IMG/VR virus record: IMGVR_UViG_2563366879_000004
Coordinates: 1 to 35,746 of that record
Length of the DNA: 35,746 bases
From: a virus
Lineage: Duplodnaviria > Heunggongvirae > Uroviricota > Caudoviricetes
Strand: one strand, 5' to 3'
Shown here: positions 7,047 through 28,271 of the stretch, in pieces
Layout of the letters: each line of letters begins with the position of its first letter
How positions within the stretch are numbered: position 1 is the first letter of the stretch
Translations under genes and position numbers: made by a program
The notes under the pieces: model-generated
Told to the model about the DNA's origin: nothing
The model's input: the letters and a program-made list of their open reading frames with translations, nothing else
Database searches by the model: none

Positions 7047-8237
7047 TTAATTGCTGTTAACCGAGGTGACCAGATTTGCCAGATATTTATCGGTGATACG
7101 CTGGCGCAGGGTCAGGTTTTCGAGAGGAGGCACCGGGGTATAGTCGTAGTCGATATACAGTTTTCCGGCCTTGAGGGTTTCCGCATCGTTGGATTCTTCG
7201 CTGAACCAGCAGGTCGCATCCACGATATAGCCGTTTGTTTTCAGCTCACGGAATTTGGCATTGATGCCGTCAACGATGTCGCGAATCAGCGTTGCGGTGA
7301 TAGGCTTGTCCACCGCCCACATATGCGCCTCAGCCATCGTGTCGGCCAGCACCTGCGCGGTGCGGGTGTAGTTTTCAAAGAGGAACAGCGGGTCATCAGA
7401 GCAGGTACGGTTACCCCAGAAGCGGAAACCGTCACGGCGAATCAGCGTTGTGACGCCTGCCTCGTTCAGCAGGTCAGCATCGGTGCCGGACTCCTGCAAA
7501 TCCCAGAATACAGAGGCGCTGATGCCGGTAACACCGTTTACCCCGACATTGGACAGCGTTTTATGCCAGCCCTGCTCCTGGTCGATTTTAGCGCGCAGAC
7601 CCAGCGCACGGGCGGTGGCATACGCGGTGGCGGTGGTGCTGCTGACCGTATCCCATGCGAGGAAATCCGGCCAGATGACCATCAGCTCACGCTGGCTGAA
7701 ATTCTGGCGGTAGGCTTTCACCTCGGAAATAGTCTTACAGCCCCATGCGCTGATATATCCGAAAGCGCGCAGCTTCTGACAGACGGATGCCAGTGCAACA
7801 GCCACCTCTTTGGTATCCAGTCCCGGCACACCGAGAATACGCGGTTTAACACCGGTTACCGACTCCGCCGCCAGCAGGGCTTTCAGTCCGGTGTACTGAC
7901 CGTTTTCATCGGTGGTGCCGATGATATTGGAAACGGTCTGCGCGAGTTTCGTTTCTTCGTCATCGCCGGTGCCGTCTTCCACGCGCACGACAACGGTGAC
8001 CGGTTTTGACTGGTCGGCGATGGCCTGCAACGATGCCGCCAGCGTGCCTTTTTTACCGGCCTTTGCAATTGCGCTCTGCACATTGGTAATCAGCACAGGT
8101 TTATTGAGGGGGAAGGTTTCCGCATCCGCATCGCTAGCCGTGCAGACCATGCCGACAATGGCAGTGGATACGGTGGAAATGACGCGGGTGCCGTCGTTAA
8201 TCTCCAGCACCTGCACGCCGTGATGATAGTCACTCAT
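7047..8237 (-). CDS. FI: Contractile tail sheath protein gpFI
   Basis: 396-aa ORF; P2 FI length and synteny. Confidence 0.9.
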   Translation of the reverse strand: MSDYHHGVQVLEINDGTRVISTVSTAIVGMVCTASDADAETFPLNKPVLITNVQSAIAKAGKKGTLAASLQAIADQSKPVTVVVRVEDGTGDDEETKLAQTVSNIIGTTDENGQYTGLKALLAAESVTGVKPRILGVPGLDTKEVAVALASVCQKLRAFGYISAWGCKTISEVKAYRQNFSQRELMVIWPDFLAWDTVSSTTATAYATARALGLRAKIDQEQGWHKTLSNVGVNGVTGISASVFWDLQESGTDADLLNEAGVTTLIRRDGFRFWGNRTCSDDPLFLFENYTRTAQVLADTMAEAHMWAVDKPITATLIRDIVDGINAKFRELKTNGYIVDATCWFSEESNDAETLKAGKLYIDYDYTPVPPLENLTLRQRITDKYLANLVTSVNSN

Positions 8238-8662
8238 CCGTTTAACTCCGTGGTTAATGGGTGCAACTATTTTCTGTTGGGCAGAGCATGAGACGCTATT
8301 TGACCTGGCTGGTCAGTGGATGAAACAACAGATAAAGAAAAGGCGGGCAATTCACCCGCCAGTCCTGATTTGTACTCACTCATTTTCCGACTGACAATTT
8401 ACTTAGCCCAAAAGCTTGTCGAATGTCTCAGGGCGTGAAGCGGACATTGCTAACAGCGTTTTATGTGAATTAACAGGGAGTAGGTCAACGTAGCGCTAGT
8501 GGCGTGTATTCTGGCTTAAAGTGTGGAGCAGTTGTCAGATTCAATGCTCATTGCAAAAAATTGTGTTCTAAAGAGGGCTGTTATATGTTATAGGTTGTTA
8601 AGCACCATCGGTGTAAAATACACTTAGAAGTGTCAAACAAGATCGTTCAAAAGGAAGACAAA

Positions 8663-8920
8663 ATGAATAACCAGCAGTTTAGGGATTTTTTGCGCAAAAA
8701 TGCACATATTGTGGATTCCAATTGGAATCCAACAGATGCACAGCTAGATGAAATCAGAGCAGCAATACAGAGAGAACTAGATCTAGGTAATAAGATAAAC
8801 TATAGCGGCCTTCAACATATCATTATTCGCATTACTGGCACTACTAGGGTAATGATATTTGATAGCGTTGATAATAGTGATTTAAACATGCTATTAGCTG
8901 CAGCAACAAAAAAGAGTTAA
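8663..8920 (+). CDS. Hypothetical 85-aa protein, first gene of the cargo module at the Z/fun position (ORF as supplied begins at 8630)
   Basis: ATG at 8663 preceded by AAGGA at 8651-8655; AT-rich; no recognised domain; opposite strand to flanking tail genes. Confidence 0.55.
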   Translation: MNNQQFRDFLRKNAHIVDSNWNPTDAQLDEIRAAIQRELDLGNKINYSGLQHIIIRITGTTRVMIFDSVDNSDLNMLLAAATKKS

Positions 8921-8923
8921 TAA

Positions 8924-9625
8924 ATGGATAATTTGGAAGAAAAGCTTTCTGCGAAGAAAGCTTTGTTTATTTCATCTGTAAGAAAATTTCTCTCGTCTAA
9001 AAACAGAGATAATTTCATAGATTGCATGATCAATGGTACCGCCTATTTCAATGAGGCAGAAAAAATGGTGGGTAATAGTAAGCTACAAGGTAAGCACAAC
9101 GATGGTTTATGGGTAACTGACTTAGCCGAGTCTTGTGAGGCAATACTTGAGTCTTATCTTCTGCATATTGAATTTATCAAGTCACACCATGAAGACATGA
9201 TGGGTGAAAGTTATAAGAAACCAAACCTGCATGCCCTTTCCAGTATGCAAAGAATGGTGAAGATGTATTGTCAGAAAGAATCATCCAGTCACCTGAGAGA
9301 AAGATTCTTAAAAGCTAACTTACCAACAAAGGGTTTTGACGTGGCTCACAGAGACGATATTGATACTGCAAATAAATATATAACATTAGGTATTGGGTCA
9401 GTATTAGTTATAATGTCATTTGCTTTTGCAATGTTCATGGATAATCCTTCGTATTTTAAAATCTTTATAATAAGATCAACTTTTGCTGTTGGCTGTGCAG
9501 CCTTGGCCTCATTTGTTCCTGGATGGATAAACGTTAACGTAAAAGGGTATGTAAAAGCAGGAGGAGCCATTGCCATTATTTTAATATTTTATTTCTTTAA
9601 CCCCCCTGCAATGCTGATTGGCTAA
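8924..9625 (+). CDS. Hypothetical 233-aa membrane protein (soluble N-terminal region of about 150 aa plus about three C-terminal transmembrane helices)
   Basis: ORF starts 4 nt after the upstream gene; C-terminal hydrophobic stretches (ITLGIGSVLVIMSFAFAMF, FAVGCAALASFVPGWI, GGAIAIILIFYFF); AT-rich. Confidence 0.6.
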   Translation: MDNLEEKLSAKKALFISSVRKFLSSKNRDNFIDCMINGTAYFNEAEKMVGNSKLQGKHNDGLWVTDLAESCEAILESYLLHIEFIKSHHEDMMGESYKKPNLHALSSMQRMVKMYCQKESSSHLRERFLKANLPTKGFDVAHRDDIDTANKYITLGIGSVLVIMSFAFAMFMDNPSYFKIFIIRSTFAVGCAALASFVPGWINVNVKGYVKAGGAIAIILIFYFFNPPAMLIG

Positions 9626-9667
9626 ATTCCCTCCTAAATATGTTCTCCTGCTTATTCCTAATTCAAT

Positions 9668-9709
9668 CCATGGAGAATTTAAATTCTGCCCTCCACCTCC
9701 ATGGTTTTT
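9668..9709 (+). terminator. Putative rho-independent terminator after the Z/fun-locus cargo operon
   Basis: 8-bp inverted repeat ccatggag / ctccatgg with a 21-nt loop, followed by ttttt. Confidence 0.45.
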
Positions 9710-10104
9710 CGTTCCCCTGTAAAATTGAATTTTTGAAGTATGTATTTTTCTGAGAAAATTAAAAAATCCAGCTCAACTGAAATTGTACATCATCTATTTG
9801 GATATAGTTTTTGTTATACCAAAATATTCCTTTTCATCGCGAGGTAAAGATAACTGCAAATTGTAAGCACTAGAACGTTCATAGCAGACTTCCAACCACT
9901 GCTCACTCTCAGTCCAGCCTTGATGGATCGCGCAATATGCCCACTTGCGTCTTTTCGAACGATGCGCAGTTGCGGCCCAATGCATACCAAGGGCTTGTGA
10001 CGAGCGTTAACGTTCAAACGTCTGCTCTTGGCACAGAGCGGACTGTCAGATTAGGCTTTACTCTGTGCCATAGATATGTAATCTCACACCAGAGCTTATA
10101 CAAC

Positions 10105-10632
10105 TTATTGCGGCATTTCCGGCCATTCAGGATTTGCAGGATCCACACGGCTGATCAGAACGCTGTAGCGTTCCCATGACTCCAGTCGTGCGCATTCCTC
10201 ATCCGTCGCCATATTCAGCCTGACAGCGCGTTCCAGTGGCTGAATAATGCTTTCCGCTTCGGAAAGTAACGCGGCCTTTTGTGATTCTGCCTGTTGTTGC
10301 TGTTCATCTGCCGTATAAATCCGTTTAACCACAGCACCATCCTTAAACATCCATTTACCTGAGTCGTCAGCACGTCGGTTGGAGGTAATATCAGGAACCT
10401 CAACAACGCTAAAACCTTCAGGATTAAGCGTTGAAGCATCTCTGGTGATAGCGACAATAATATTATTTTCATCGTAAACAATCTTTATTGTGTCTGGCTG
10501 AAAGTTCTTCACTTCCTCATACCAGTTTTTTCCGTCCTCAGAGTAAAGCCAGATAACTCCGTGTTTCTTTGTTAACTCATACTGTTCCAGTGTTTTAGCG
10601 TTACCCGCTTTTATGTTCTTTAAGTGCATCAT
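10105..10632 (-). CDS. G: Tail fiber assembly protein gpG
   Basis: 175-aa ORF; P2 gpG length; immediately downstream of H. Confidence 0.85.
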
Positions 10633-10633
10633 A

Positions 10634-12655
10634 TTAAACGCTCGCTACATTATACCAGGTGCCATTTATATACTTTTGAACGGGTCTGTAATAAACACCC
10701 GCTATATTATCGGCAGAGTTGGACCCTGTATCCTGAACATTAATACCAGACAATACATGACCTGATGGGCACTGGAAATTCCATGTTTGCCAGTTGTTCA
10801 CTCCATAATATTGCTGTGAACCAAGTCGAACATCTTTCACATATCTGGAATCAAAGTTGCCATAGTTGCCGGGAATAACTTGCGAGCCACAAAGCCAGTT
10901 ACCGTTATTATCCATGTACGCCTGACCATCGGTGCCATTGGCTGTCCTTGAGTTATTAATCATGTAGATGCCAAATTGCTTGTTCCCCAGTCCACCTATC
11001 ATGAACTTGCGGTCAGCGTGATTCTGGCGAAGCAACGCCTGAGCGCTATCAGTGTTAACTATATTTTTCCCAAAGATAGCGTTGTTATCGCGCATCTGAA
11101 TCCACATACCATTACTGCTGTTAATAGCAAAACGGTCTGAAAGTGTCTCCCCTGAAACATTAAGGCCACTCCCCATCGAAACAGCGCCAGTAGCGTTATT
11201 AATCCATAATGGCCTTAATCCGTTATAAGTCCCCATGTTGTCACCGGAGTTTGTCAACATGAAGTATGTATTTGAACCATCATTACGAATAAAGAATCCG
11301 TAATTACCATAAGCAATACGTAGGCCGTTTGCTGATTTTGATATTATTTCGCCATTTACAATGGCATTGACAAGAACATACAAAGCATCCCATTTAAGAT
11401 TCATCAGGTCTTTTGTTGTAGTACTCTGGCGGCTTCTCCATTTGAAATATTCATTGCCATTATCCCCCGTTTCAAACCACATGAATGAATCAGTGTCACC
11501 ATCGGCATCATTTTTAAATCCAATCTTCGCCCAGTCAGTATTTCGAATCCAGGCAAGGATTGAGTCGTTTTCAAAAGTAAGTCCACCGGACAAGGTATCG
11601 CCATTTTTTTGCACGGCGTTCCCGGCTCGGTTTACCGTTTCCTGTAAACCGAGATATTCGATAACGGCGGCAACGGTCGATTTAGCCAGAATATCCCGCC
11701 CGACTTTTGTCAGGGTTGCCAGGCTGGCAACATCATTCCCCGTAAAATACGGAAGCCTGTCTGCCGCAGTAGCAAGCCCCGCCAGCGCCGTCAGGGTTGC
11801 ATCTTTCGGTTGCTTACCCGCAAGCGCATTAGTCATGGTGGTAGCAAAATTCGGGTCATTGCCCAGCGCCGCCGCCAGCTCGTTCAGCGTATTCAGTGCG
11901 TCAGGCGACGAGTCTACAAGGGCGGCAATCGCGGCCATAACGAAAGCCGTGTTTGCGATCTGAGTATTATTCGTTCCCTGTCGCGCAGTTGGCGTCGTTG
12001 GCGTTCCGGTCAGTGCAGGGCTGTTTAATGGCGCTTTCTTGTTCGTTTCATCCATTACCGTCTTAACGGCTTTCGGCGTTGCGGCCAGTGTTTCAGACGT
12101 GCTGTTGGTCGCGCTGCTTAGCTGAGTAAAACCTTTTGCGGTCAGCGAGGCGTCCGGGTGACGTCGTGACTGTTCGTGCTCTGCAATTTTGTCATCAACG
12201 TAATCCTGCGTTGCCATCACCGTTGTGGTGTCAATGGTCAGCTCCACTGAGGCCACACTGCTGACGATGATGACCATGCGGCAGGTCTGCGAACGCCCTG
12301 AGCCTTCGGCAAGGGCAGGCTTATAACTTTCGGCCATGTTCGCCACGGCAATTAACGTTCCTGCATCATCGTACAGGCCAAGCTCACGCATCCAGAAACC
12401 GCCCACCTCCGGCGGAATAACCAGCTCTGCGATAATATAATTACTGTTTCGTTTGTCCTGCCTGATTTTGTTCAGCGCATGTCGCCAGACTTCGTGGATA
12501 AGCCCGGTCTGTCCGGCATCCGGGACAGGCAATTTACCACCGCCATCCCCGACGGCCATCGTGGTAATGTTGACCTTCCGCCCTCCCGGTGCGGTTGCCG
12601 CTGCCAGCTTTGCTGCACCGGCAGTGGTGATAACGGTTCTGAATTTTGTGCTCAT
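10634..12655 (-). CDS. H: Tail fiber protein gpH
   Basis: 673-aa ORF; Ala/Thr-rich repeats in the middle; P2 gpH position (length here slightly different from the recalled 669 aa). Confidence 0.85.
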
Positions 12656-25097: not shown

Positions 25098-25102
25098 ACA
25101 TC

Positions 25103-25124
25103 GCCGCCTGCGGGCGGCTTTTTT
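25103..25124 (+). terminator. Rho-independent terminator after Q
   Basis: gccgcc-tgcg-ggcggc hairpin followed by tttttt, 6 nt after the Q stop. Confidence 0.7.
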
Positions 25125-25265
25125 ACAGCCCGTCATCACGCCCTCACACGCTCACCACCGCACAAAACAGCCCGCAGACACACCAACGCCCCGGCTAACA
25201 ATCTAAACGCCATCACGACGCGCTCAGACGCTGAAAAAATAAAATCAGCACCACCGCCAGCGCGC

Positions 25266-25284
25266 AGTGCTTTCCCCGCCTCGC
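25266..25284 (-). other. cos: cos cohesive-end site (19 nt, GGCGAGGCGGGGAAAGCAC on minus strand)
   Basis: Plus strand gtgctttccccgcctcgcc is the reverse complement of the recalled P2 19-nt cohesive end; located just beyond Q as in P2. Confidence 0.8.
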
Positions 25285-25434
25285 CCGCCCGCTTAATGGG
25301 GCGGTTTTGATGCAGTTGTATAACGACGCAGACTTCCTGACAGTTCTATCAACTCATAACAAAAAAAAGCATTACAGATGAATGCAAAATCATGCAACTA
25401 ATGATGGCGTACAGGCTAGGTGAGAAAATAAATG

Positions 25435-26235
25435 CTATTTCATCAGTCCTATAAAAGCTGCTGTCATGCTACCCAATGCACCAATAGCAGCAAATAACGT
25501 TGCCCAAAACATGCTTTTTTGGCTACGAATATTCTCATTATATCGTTGTTTTTCATTATTGAAGTGATTTAACGTATTAATTGCTTTTCCGGTGGGCTTA
25601 TAACCATCTCGAGTCTTTGAAATGTCCCCACTCTCTACAAGGGAATCCAGACATAAGCGAAGTTCTTTTATGAGTCGAGAATAATCATCATGGTAGATCC
25701 ATAAACGTCCTGCCACATCATTCATAATTAGAGTCTCACTGAATGGTTTTTCCCCTTGTTGCTCTCGATAAATTCTGACAATTGCAGCCAATACCGTCAT
25801 TACATCAGTTATCTCCTGCTTGCGTTGTCGATACAAATACTTCTCACGACTTAGCTTTTTATTTTGACGATCCGCTATTCTTCTAAATCTAAGTACATTA
25901 AAATAAGATAAATCATCCAATGAGTCAAACTTCAATTCATGCGCATGATAATAATAAATTCCAGAAAAGGAATTTGATGTAAGTCGTTCTGGTTTAAGAA
26001 TTGTATCAATATTGAAAGTTTTATTCTGATGATTCCACTTCTTAACCTTTATAATTCCGTTTGAATAACTATCAAAAAGATAGTCATTACCCTCGTCATC
26101 CTTAATGTAAACGGAATACATATCGTAATGAATGGCACTCTCATACATTAAACTAATTTTGCCATTTTCAGGGATCTTCTTTGACTCAAAAACTTTCAGA
26201 AACTTTACAACATCAACTTTATTTTTATGCCTCAT
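25435..26235 (-). CDS. Hypothetical 266-aa protein with a single C-terminal transmembrane anchor; candidate effector of the adjacent RT system
   Basis: AT-rich ORF 165 nt downstream of the RT gene on the same strand; C-terminus MFWATLFAAIGALGSMTAAFIGLMK is strongly hydrophobic; no recognised catalytic motif. Confidence 0.6.
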   Translation of the reverse strand: MRHKNKVDVVKFLKVFESKKIPENGKISLMYESAIHYDMYSVYIKDDEGNDYLFDSYSNGIIKVKKWNHQNKTFNIDTILKPERLTSNSFSGIYYYHAHELKFDSLDDLSYFNVLRFRRIADRQNKKLSREKYLYRQRKQEITDVMTVLAAIVRIYREQQGEKPFSETLIMNDVAGRLWIYHDDYSRLIKELRLCLDSLVESGDISKTRDGYKPTGKAINTLNHFNNEKQRYNENIRSQKSMFWATLFAAIGALGSMTAAFIGLMK

Positions 26236-26400
26236 ACATTCAGCCTTGACTGTAAACCACCATATTAAATGATTGCACTAACGACTCGTACTACTTATTG
26301 TTCAACCCAGTCAGAACTGAAAGCAAACTTTTGCACTAACTGGGTTTCCATCATAATATATCGATACTAATAAAATCCGATATTATTATATTTTAGTGTA

Positions 26401-27351
26401 TTAAACCGATGTATTTGCTTTCAACGTCAATACCTTCGATCTATAACGTTTTTCAATAACCCCCATTGAATATAAACGACCAAATAATTTCTTTGCTGTT
26501 CTTGTATCTTTAGCTTGTTCTACATCTTTTATTATTTTCCAAAGCTCTATTTCTCTAGCCATAAGATAATGCTGTTCGTTCCTAACCTTTAAGCTATCCC
26601 CAAATACTATCACTCCTGTCACTAGTTTAGGCTTATCCCCAGCATATAATTTCGTTTTAGTTGGATGCATAACGTGTCCATGCTTATTAATAATCTTACG
26701 AATCACGCTGCAAAACAATCGATTTACATTATCTCCAGAAAAAGTAAGATCATCGACATAAACTGTCATTTTCACACGAAACTTCTCACAAAGTTGATTC
26801 ATTTCATCAAACATTCTGGAATTTGCAAAATATGCTAATGGCATACTAATCCGACTACCCGTTGGCAATCGTTCATGACAGGTACATATATGAGATAAAA
26901 TATCAGCCACATCTGGCGACATTTTCATTATTGAGAAAAAGAAAGAAAATATCATTTCTCTTGTTGTTGACGGAAAAAAAGATCTAATATCTGTAGTCAT
27001 CAACTTCTGATGATTGAGATGTGCTTTAGCATTTGTTATGTTAGAGCAACTTTTTTTACCAGAGTGTAAATATTCGGGCATAGCTATACGCAATAATAGA
27101 CTCGCAATACGTGTATGCACTACATCTAATTTTTCTAAAGGCTTTTGTATTTTCCGTATTTTATTTTTTTTAGAAAGCTGTTCAAAAATAGAGTAATTAC
27201 CCTCATCCCTTTTCAAAACTGATAGGTCATTGATACTAACGCAGAGCAAGCTAGCCAACTTTTTTTTACTTTTAAGTTTATAAAGTGGCGAATCCGTAAT
27301 AGGATAAGATTTATTTTTAGTTGAAACCTTCAGCTTAATCCTTTTTTTCAT
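26401..27351 (-). CDS. Retron-type reverse transcriptase (316 aa)
   Basis: RT motifs in order: NAKAH (retron NAxxH), DIRSFFPS, LPTGSRISMPLAYF (LPxG...SxP), YVDD catalytic box (VYVDDLTFS), and KLVTGVIV (retron VTG motif); size typical of retron RTs; very AT-rich. Confidence 0.8.
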   Translation of the reverse strand: MKKRIKLKVSTKNKSYPITDSPLYKLKSKKKLASLLCVSINDLSVLKRDEGNYSIFEQLSKKNKIRKIQKPLEKLDVVHTRIASLLLRIAMPEYLHSGKKSCSNITNAKAHLNHQKLMTTDIRSFFPSTTREMIFSFFFSIMKMSPDVADILSHICTCHERLPTGSRISMPLAYFANSRMFDEMNQLCEKFRVKMTVYVDDLTFSGDNVNRLFCSVIRKIINKHGHVMHPTKTKLYAGDKPKLVTGVIVFGDSLKVRNEQHYLMAREIELWKIIKDVEQAKDTRTAKKLFGRLYSMGVIEKRYRSKVLTLKANTSV

Positions 27352-27637
27352 TTCTTTTACTTACCCACTCTAGTATATCCAGAACTTTCCCTGCCAGTTT
27401 TAAACGTAAACTTTTGGATAATCGTCCTTGTGTCCCTAATGATTCTGAAAAAAAGACCAAAGAGGATACTGGCATGTCGAAATGGGAAGCATAACGCTGC
27501 AAAATATCAATCGACGGCACCCATAGTCCGCTTTCAATCTCTACTATTCTGCTTTTTGGAATACCTAAAGATGATGATAAGTCAACTATTGATTCTTTAT
27601 GGTATTGCCTTATTAAACGAAGGGCTTTATGCAACAT
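27335..27637 (-). CDS. XRE-family helix-turn-helix protein (about 100 aa) overlapping the RT start
   Basis: HTH-like segment IVDLSSSLGIPKSRIVEIESG; preferred ATG at 27637 has GGAG 6 nt upstream (the supplied ORF starts at 27649); 3' end overlaps the RT start by 17 nt, suggesting translational coupling. Confidence 0.65.
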   Translation of the reverse strand: MLHKALRLIRQYHKESIVDLSSSLGIPKSRIVEIESGLWVPSIDILQRYASHFDMPVSSLVFFSESLGTQGRLSKSLRLKLAGKVLDILEWVSKRNEKKD

Positions 27638-27673
27638 AGGCAACTCCATCTTGTTGAAACTAGGGAGGACGCA

Positions 27674-27829
27674 TTACTCATCTCCCCCTTCAAAGAAGTC
27701 AACTGCGCGAGTGATCCAATAAAGTAGTCTAATAAGCCACTTAATTACACCCCAAGCGTTAGGAGTCTTCTTTTTCCGGTTTAACTTGTTTTGCGCCTGC
27801 TGTTCGTTGGTTACTTTATCATTTTTCAT
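27674..27829 (-). CDS. Possible 51-aa peptide with basic N-terminus and one hydrophobic helix (MKNDKV...WGVIKWLIRLLYWITRAV...)
   Basis: ATG at 27829 preceded by AAGGAG at 6-nt spacing; lies within the supplied 97-aa ORF 27674..27967; could instead be non-coding leader or ncRNA sequence. Confidence 0.35.
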   Translation of the reverse strand: MKNDKVTNEQQAQNKLNRKKKTPNAWGVIKWLIRLLYWITRAVDFFEGGDE

Positions 27830-28100
27830 GATCTGCTCCTTATGTCCACGGTGTGCAAACGATATGTCTGCTCCAGCACCATGGCTCGCCCTCATAAGGA
27901 TGAGATTGAACAGCACCAGCTCCCTGCTCCACGAACCCTTTGTCGCCCAAAGGGTTCGAATACCCATACGCTATGCCGCGTGAATCAGAGACTCCTGTCG
28001 CTGACAGAGGCGTTGCGCGGGGTAAATGTTAGAAAGCATTAGCTTTCCACGGGCAATAAATACCCAATTGATGGCGATTTATCTCACTAACTAACCAATG
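27830..28100 (-). ncRNA. Candidate structured leader or retron msr/msd-like ncRNA upstream of the RT operon (boundaries uncertain)
   Basis: Perfect 11-bp stem cgaaccctttg/caaagggttcg (27932-27958), 8-bp stem 28030-28049, imperfect stem 27992-28010, direct repeats of cgtgga; retron ncRNAs are normally encoded just upstream of the RT operon. The a1/a2 repeats could not be confirmed by eye. Confidence 0.3.
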
Positions 28101-28271
28101 ATTGAATCATACCAAGTAAACCGTTGTATTTGATCTCTCCTTATATAATTTTTTGTTATTAATAAATATAATTAAATAACAAAATGAAATAAAACTAATC
28201 TTCAACCGTCTCATCACAAGAAATATCAACAAATCAAGAATATCGTTTGATTATCTAGTCTTTCCAATTCA

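Follow-up and report, generated by a model that had tools for sequence, protein, structure and literature searches.

The window analyzed here, the whole 35,746-nt stretch of viral record IMGVR_UViG_2563366879_000004, on which all coordinates are based, is a P2-like (Peduovirus) prophage. Between its tail sheath gene FI (7047-8237, minus strand) and its tail-fiber assembly gene G (10105-10632, minus strand) it carries two plus-strand genes, which we call A and B. We suggest, with a confidence that falls a little short of even, that A-B is a mobile conflict or defense module, most likely anti-phage, in which the small protein A regulates a membrane-disrupting effector, B. The pair is a strong candidate for a new defense/conflict system of a familiar kind, namely a small partner with a membrane effector. 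Several observations support a role in defense: close copies of the pair sit in seven unrelated mobile contexts; a copy with two tandem A genes sits in the old/tin hotspot, itself a described defense locus like Z/fun; distant copies adjoin GajA, gop-beta-cII, retron or DRT reverse transcriptase (RT), HEPN-Toprim and Hachiman genes; the modules of B are elsewhere fused with caspase, COR, FGE-sulfatase and lipase-like hydrolase domains; A lies directly upstream of B in 48 of 50 loci; and the ratios of nonsynonymous to synonymous substitution rates (dN/dS) are between 0.13 and 0.29. An earlier note, made from the letters of the window alone, had read the genes as a two-component defense or toxin-antitoxin (TA) module. 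Conservation of the pair strongly supports the two-component part of this claim, and a defense or TA role is what we infer, with support from the presence of the family in both P2 hotspots, the neighboring defense genes and the fusions of the B modules.

A conserved operon in seven mobile contexts

We define the A(1-3)+B operon family as a B-family gene, for a helical N-domain and a module of three membrane helices, with one or more A-family genes directly before it on the same strand, and the window carries such an operon. When our own A and B profiles were run on all open reading frames (ORFs) of the sampled loci, nearly all of about 60 loci agreed with this arrangement. The upstream A-family ORFs in the 48 loci mentioned above measure 81-99 amino acids (aa) and share the strand of B. 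Of the two loci among the 50 that deviate, one is a contig edge and the other holds a partial fusion protein. The arrangement recurs in loci sampled later (L051-L057, L064-L067). The operons come from Gamma-, Beta- and Zetaproteobacteria, Campylobacterota, an actinomycete, an Acidobacteriaceae genome and others, and the pairing is kept at identities as low as about 28% and in mobile elements of many kinds. Two tandem A paralogs (A-A-B) are found in most of the distant lineages, and a single A in the enterobacterial mobile-element clade that includes the window. There are also variants with three tandem A genes (L047:5156-5988) and with two complete systems side by side (L049:2744-6714), and a naturally fused A-A protein, 175 aa long and containing two A domains (L049:5462-5989), suggests that A paralogs act together. 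Both genes are intact in every copy examined, so that pseudogenization in relatives, which the earlier note had named as a finding that would speak against it, was not seen. In comparison with the Klebsiella copy described below, A has a dN/dS of 0.29 and B one of 0.13. Judged from these substitutions, A and B are real genes under purifying selection, and a non-functional pair is excluded by their conservation together with the dN/dS values.

Close copies of the pair, whose B proteins share 46-90% identity, occur in unrelated surroundings, and the pair moves as a unit. It sits in the Z/fun slot of P2 in the window, in TOK-001 and in phage record OU784750; in a rearranged Klebsiella P2 remnant, near an RT and AAA-ATPase pair; on a Dickeya conjugative plasmid, beside CcdAB, ArdC and a TerB/BrxC-like/DEAD cluster; on an IncFII plasmid; in an integrase/relaxase island with Beta_protein, M78 peptidase and P4 cII; in an island with AbiTii and AbiJ/Abi_C; and on small Rep3 plasmids, beside a CdiA-CT/immunity pair. 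The A-A-B operon in the old/tin hotspot is a divergent one, located on the contig of another P2-like phage in the interval from gpA to the portal and terminase genes. A survey of 274 ORFs around 32 genome loci found integrases, resolvases, transposases, gop-beta-cII components, retron/DRT RTs and HEPN-Toprim proteins, plus housekeeping flanks. Gabija GajA is among the neighbors (E = 3e-206), and one copy, on a Pseudomonas plasmid, lies beside the Hachiman genes HamA and HamB.

The slot in the window was called variable by the earlier note, and our comparison agrees with it. In reference P2, the G-FI interval is occupied by fun(Z), on the strand opposite to the tail genes and with the annotation 'cloned gene blocks growth of T5; nonessential'. 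In other E. coli P2-like prophages this slot is empty or filled with a 175-aa ORF, a 447-aa ORF, or a DNA invertase and an IS66 element, and because its content differs in this way the slot is a variable hotspot. Homology to the backbone of reference P2 and of other E. coli P2-like prophages stops at 8416 and restarts at 10017, which sets the bounds of the cargo (Table 1). The description of the cargo as AT-rich, lying between FI and G and opposite to the tail genes, is likewise correct, with a guanine-cytosine (GC) content of 0.34-0.40 across the A/B region as against 0.53-0.59 in the flanking tail genes. The FI-side junction is common to about 1705 of 5426 complete E. coli genomes, and the A-B cargo is present in only one of them (TOK-001). 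A and B proteins are encoded on several hundred E. coli draft contigs, where they are named 'hypothetical' save for a few 'MFS transporter' labels. The Z/fun locus is listed as a further P2 defense locus (PMC13586616), and Rousset et al. showed that the old/tin hotspot of P2-like phages is a reservoir of defense systems (PMC9122126).

Three loci of the sample have additional genes or other arrangements. On a 6.6-kb plasmid of Acinetobacter ursingii (L062:4804-5966), a shortened B-like gene (214 aa), with a DUF1778-GNAT toxin-antitoxin pair alongside, is preceded by a gene whose product, of 171 aa, does not resemble A and found no match in Pfam; this protein may be an alternative partner of the B effector. 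By eye it had looked like an RT fragment, an idea that was dropped when Pfam did not confirm it. In one metagenomic lineage (L017:2533-4053), B is followed by two paralogous proteins of 245 and 255 aa, which have hydrophobic, signal-peptide-like N-termini and are unrelated to A or B. A distant A-B pair (L012:1366-4695) adjoins a Trypsin_2 protease, an 82-aa ORF with no Pfam match and a Peptidase_S8 gene, a layout that, by analogy, resembles protease-effector conflict modules.

Two protein families and their cassette

We take the start of A as the ATG at 8663, not the GTG at 8630, because the Shine-Dalgarno sequence AAGGAAG fits the former and every homolog begins MNN; this is also the start, and the 85-aa product, that the earlier note had given. 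A is predicted to be soluble, with four helices (predicted local distance difference test, pLDDT, 83), and both of its motifs are kept across the A family, the second of them being invariant and acidic. For the 233-aa product of B, Kyte-Doolittle hydropathy and AlphaFold2 (mean pLDDT 79.5) agree on three hydrophobic segments, which bears out the soluble N-terminal domain and about three C-terminal transmembrane (TM) helices claimed from the letters. The TM module is rich in small residues (GIGS, AVGCAALAS, AGGAIA), with conserved polar Q179 and R184.

Scans of Pfam, NCBIfam and PADLOC gave nothing above noise for A or B, and PADLOC-DB 2.0.0 (5027 component models) contained no family for either at E ≤ 1. 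Profile searches of PDB sequences with the A and B alignments returned nothing meaningful. The profile and structure-database searches that the earlier note had proposed therefore yielded no PDB or annotated-family match, only PHROG 31842 for A (E = 6.5e-59, residues 1-85) and PHROG 5814 for B (E = 5.6e-112, residues 1-230), both annotated 'unknown function', in keeping with its statement that it recognized no family for either protein. When 149 relatives of B and 10 of A were scanned with Pfam, only accessory domains in a few fusion proteins were detected. The possibility that A is a relative of part of B was also considered and ruled out (hhalign probability 0.6%).

Against the profiles of their own families, A and B score E = 7.5e-35 and E = 4.2e-83, respectively. 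A word-indexed search of 5.8 billion sequences found only 13 A clusters and 17 B clusters; an exhaustive search with the B profile found 2066 representatives at E ≤ 1e-3, 623 at E ≤ 1e-10 and 49 at E ≤ 1e-30. Most members of the B superfamily are full-length, 245-270 aa long, and have the conserved motifs in common. Elsewhere, the TM module of B occurs alone or joined to a caspase, COR-A/COR-B or FGE-sulfatase domain, and its N-domain occurs joined to PGAP1/DUF676-type alpha/beta hydrolases or Lcl_C, which take the place of the TM module. As far as their sequences tell, the two halves of B are separate evolutionary modules. The earlier note had missed the size of the B superfamily, the tandem A paralogs in most relatives and the roughly 390 bp of conserved non-coding sequence 3' of the genes.

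Table 1. Features of the A-B cargo and its genes, in window coordinates
Feature	Position	Strand	Details
Cargo insert, FI-G (Z/fun) hotspot	8417..10016	.	backbone homology gap; GC 0.34-0.40
Cassette common to rearranged Klebsiella P2 remnant	8496..10102	+	blastn, 84% DNA identity
Promoter-like region	8532..8593	+	TTGTCA at 8532-8537, CTGTTATATGTTATAG at 8578-8593
Shine-Dalgarno sequence AAGGAAG of gene A	8651..8657	+	read from sequence; kept in the alignment of cassette copies
Gene A	8663..8920	+	85-aa soluble four-helix protein; motifs W.PT..QL..I and G.DNSDL..LL.LA
Gene B	8924..9625	+	233 aa; helical N-domain and three TM helices
B N-terminal cytoplasmic all-helical domain (predicted)	8924..9370	+	about aa 1-149; motifs YFN..E, W..AE.C, MQRMV, LP..GF
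B C-terminal three-TM module	9371..9625	+	about aa 150-233; motifs P.PT..Q..FR, PGF/W, AGGA, NPP
B TM helices	9365-9436, 9452-9508, 9548-9595	+	AlphaFold2 helices aa 148-171, 177-195, 209-224
Conserved non-coding 3' tail of cassette	9626..10016	.	about 80% identity to Klebsiella copy, about 390 bp
Weak terminator-like hairpin	9668..9709	+	8-bp stem (9668-9675/9697-9704), 21-nt loop, then UUUUU

In the Klebsiella P2 remnant the cassette is placed between gpS and gpV, and from the extent of the match it follows that the mobile unit takes in about 170 bp upstream of the genes and about 390 bp of 3' sequence. Two upstream blocks, TTGTCA and CTGyTATATGaTrTAG, are kept in an alignment of four cassette copies from three genomic contexts, in line with a putative promoter that moves together with the cassette; a consensus promoter scan gave a weak TTGTCA-18-AAAAAT site only. 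A and B are separated by a spacer of 3 nt, not 4 nt as the earlier note had it, in which a second TAA follows the A stop and precedes the B ATG; so short a spacer suggests translational coupling. The note had also placed a terminator downstream of B. The hairpin and its U5 run are indeed present (free energy -11.3 kcal/mol, z = -2.5, with 3 of 200 shuffles folding equally well), and the terminator is at best a weak candidate because the consensus terminator scan did not call it. In the 3' tail, no third gene was found in the form of an ORF kept between the window and Klebsiella copies, nor was there any Rfam match; the tail may be what is left of a decayed gene, or it may be regulatory or encode an unannotated RNA.

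Further details of the cargo and its margins may be recorded here. Codons 6-14 of B (8941-8964) contain a 10-bp perfect palindrome (AAAGCTTTCT GCGA AGAAAGCTTT), which could affect the translation of B. A strong terminator-like hairpin (GGCGGG...CCCGCC and a T-run) lies on the minus strand at 8342-8360, within conserved backbone sequence and a short way upstream of the late promoter region of FI. The V-operon terminator that is annotated after G in P2 (P2 15639-15666) falls within the part replaced by the cargo, and due to its loss late transcription from G might cross B and A antisense, up to the hairpin at 8342-8360. At the left cargo junction, the stretch 8410-8455 has matches of 40-45 bp, at 93-100% identity, to sequence that many E. 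coli plasmids and chromosomes carry within annotated IS110-family/ISEsa2 transposase genes, and could thus be what an IS110-type element has left behind at the boundary of the hotspot.

Proposed mechanism, known systems and rival explanations

We propose that the prophage would express A-B during lysogeny from the cassette's own promoter, like P2 with fun(Z). B would be held in the inner membrane by its conserved three-TM module, with its helical domain of 150 aa facing the cytoplasm, and A, as a small cytosolic partner, would bind this domain and set its state. The N-domain of B may receive a signal, such that an infection cue would presumably remove or reverse the control exerted by A. The freed TM modules might then associate and depolarize or permeabilize the membrane, and this damage would abort the infection or block its progress. 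The occurrence of the N-domain in proteins where it is joined to membrane-attacking lipase-like hydrolases fits a division into an N-terminal regulator and a C-terminal effector. A more far-reaching version of this idea, which is possible and which we put forward only tentatively, is that A-B represents, in a compact form with only one A, an anti-phage system that is widespread and so far undescribed. There, small helical A proteins, usually as a heterodimer of two paralogs, would gate a new three-TM membrane-disrupting effector domain, one that is also wired to sensor or regulator modules of the caspase, COR and FGE-sulfatase types and that can trade places with lipase-like hydrolases on a common regulatory N-domain. 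Some of our observations limit the case for a role in defense: the three strongest cases of defense neighbors are related Pseudomonas loci, defense genes are a minority of the neighbors in a tally made by listing, and the A-B family is rare on catalogued phages and plasmids.

The same logic as we propose for A-B is found in RexAB of lambda, a prophage pair in which a soluble partner is combined with a polytopic inner-membrane effector. RexB, with its four TM helices, lacks a large soluble domain, and the length of RexA is about 280 aa. A-B differs from this pair in that the membrane protein B has a large soluble domain and its partner A is only 85 aa, and no match of A or B to the RexA or RexB family was found in Pfam or PADLOC. 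Like A-B, fun(Z) of P2 lies between G and FI, opposite to the tail genes, as a non-essential cargo block with the same backbone junctions. Its product (NP_046777), in contrast, is one soluble protein of 528 aa, which contains a P-loop-like GEKGTGKT motif and lacks TM segments; the best blastp hit between A or B and Fun(Z) has E = 0.089 over 35 residues, and the A and B profiles give it negative bit scores.

Other systems share parts of the proposed design. Of the protease-gated pore formers, EACC1 is an alpha+beta protein of about 13 kDa with one TM helix and Pepco is a beta-barrel former, and caspase, alpha/beta hydrolase and FGE partner domains are typical of conflict systems (PMC7159879; PMC12642450). 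The combination of EACC1 or Pepco with caspase or trypsin, in which a small constant component is paired with a membrane-damaging effector, is akin to what we propose for A-B. Going by these descriptions, A-B is set apart by a soluble, all-helical A, a helical B with three TM segments and an operon without a protease. The P2/P4-hotspot systems with TM effectors, which include HAD-hydrolase + TM, RT-nitrilase + TM and the TIR/TM system of phage AC1, occupy the same niche and have a TM protein as the presumed effector (PMC9122126). Unlike them, A-B has no PADLOC match, and its partner protein is small and helical, with no enzymatic domain. These hotspot systems are presumably included in PADLOC. 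Among SLATT and the catalogued nucleotide-signalling TM effectors, neither Pfam nor PADLOC gave a match for B, nor did Pfam for its 149 relatives, and there is no cyclase in the A-B operon. No system newly named in the 2026 Nucleic Acids Research (NAR) paper on P2 and P4 has the A-B architecture. The protein records WP_016233337 and WP_016233338 are mentioned neither in the full text of the literature that was searchable nor in the supplements of Vassallo 2022 and DefensePredictor, though an earlier description may exist.

It would also be conceivable, if unlikely, that the pair serves addiction, with B as a membrane toxin and A as a labile protein antitoxin that together stabilize the carrier element, any effect on phages being secondary. 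The gene order is the classical one of type II TA systems, in which a small first gene is tightly coupled, over the 3-nt spacer and on the same strand, to a larger second gene. Copies on plasmids lie beside the maintenance genes CcdAB and ParA/ParG, others are on the small Rep3 plasmids, and the 6.6-kb plasmid with the B-like gene also bears the DUF1778-GNAT pair. However, searches of Pfam, NCBIfam and PDB sequences detected no known toxin family for B, and no DNA-binding (ribbon-helix-helix or helix-turn-helix) or known antitoxin domain in A or in 10 diverse A relatives. Furthermore, the two or three tandem A paralogs of most lineages would be unusual for an antitoxin, and the large conserved cytoplasmic domain of B, together with the caspase, COR and FGE fusions, points to regulated conflict effectors. 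TA and abortive-infection roles are mutually compatible.

We consider it distinctly unlikely that the pair acts by non-abortive superinfection exclusion in the manner of Sie or Imm, where a membrane-anchored B, helped by A, would stop DNA entry or an early membrane step and the cell would survive. This would suit a slot whose P2 occupant blocks the growth of T5 and a B that is predicted to be an inner-membrane protein with a cytoplasmic domain, and the orientation of the genes and their own promoter-like region suggest lysogenic conversion expressed by the prophage. The P2 occupant is, however, an unrelated protein, the A-B family is mostly chromosomal or on non-phage elements in several phyla, and both the swap of the TM module for lipase-like domains on the N-domain and the caspase and COR fusions are more suggestive of a damaging effector than of a passive blocker. 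A non-defense accessory function, such as a membrane signalling, stress or transport-related pair that is an incidental passenger of mobile elements, appears very unlikely to us. Many chromosomal copies are flanked by housekeeping genes, the defense database PADLOC gave no match, and a few records call B an 'MFS transporter'; yet these labels are isolated among dozens of 'hypothetical' ones, B matches no transporter family, and three TM helices with a cytoplasmic domain of 150 aa are not the architecture of a transporter. Such a function would also make it hard to explain the repeated capture of the pair in phage, plasmid and island hotspots, including both of those in P2.

The surrounding prophage and implications

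Outside the A-B cargo, the window has a second hotspot between portal gene Q and replication gene A (25100-28270), with an RT-family gene, two hypothetical genes and a helix-turn-helix gene. The annotation of near-identical E. coli records makes this layout retron-like, and no msr RNA was found there at the Rfam gathering threshold. TOK-001, with the same A-B cargo, has a DUF4238 gene in the second hotspot instead, and the two hotspots thus assort independently. Near the prophage end, a CyaR/RyeE small RNA gene lies at 1445-1530 (100.7 bits), after a 453-aa ORF (1-1362). The Klebsiella P2 remnant with the same cassette adjoins a Peptidase_U32 gene and an Ogr gene, and its site may be the chromosomal equivalent of the prophage end on the CyaR side. 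Finally, GC content is low (0.39-0.45) at 10400-11600, in G and the 3' part of tail-fiber gene H, when compared with the other parts of the tail operon; this fits the exchange of a host-range module beside the cargo slot.

New candidates encoded in hotspots are now common; what A-B opens is a large family. The small size of the pair, its own promoter-like region and its origin in E. coli make it easy to test. If it turned out to be an addiction module instead of a defense system, it would represent an unusual TA family with a membrane toxin and multi-copy antitoxins. If it is protective, it would be a new and very compact defense system of about 1.2 kb. Two protein families that lack annotation would be defined with it, as would a new, mobile TM effector domain, of which more than 2000 diverged representatives are spread over several phyla. 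In that case the less-studied Z/fun slot of P2-like prophages, like old/tin, could be mined for new systems.

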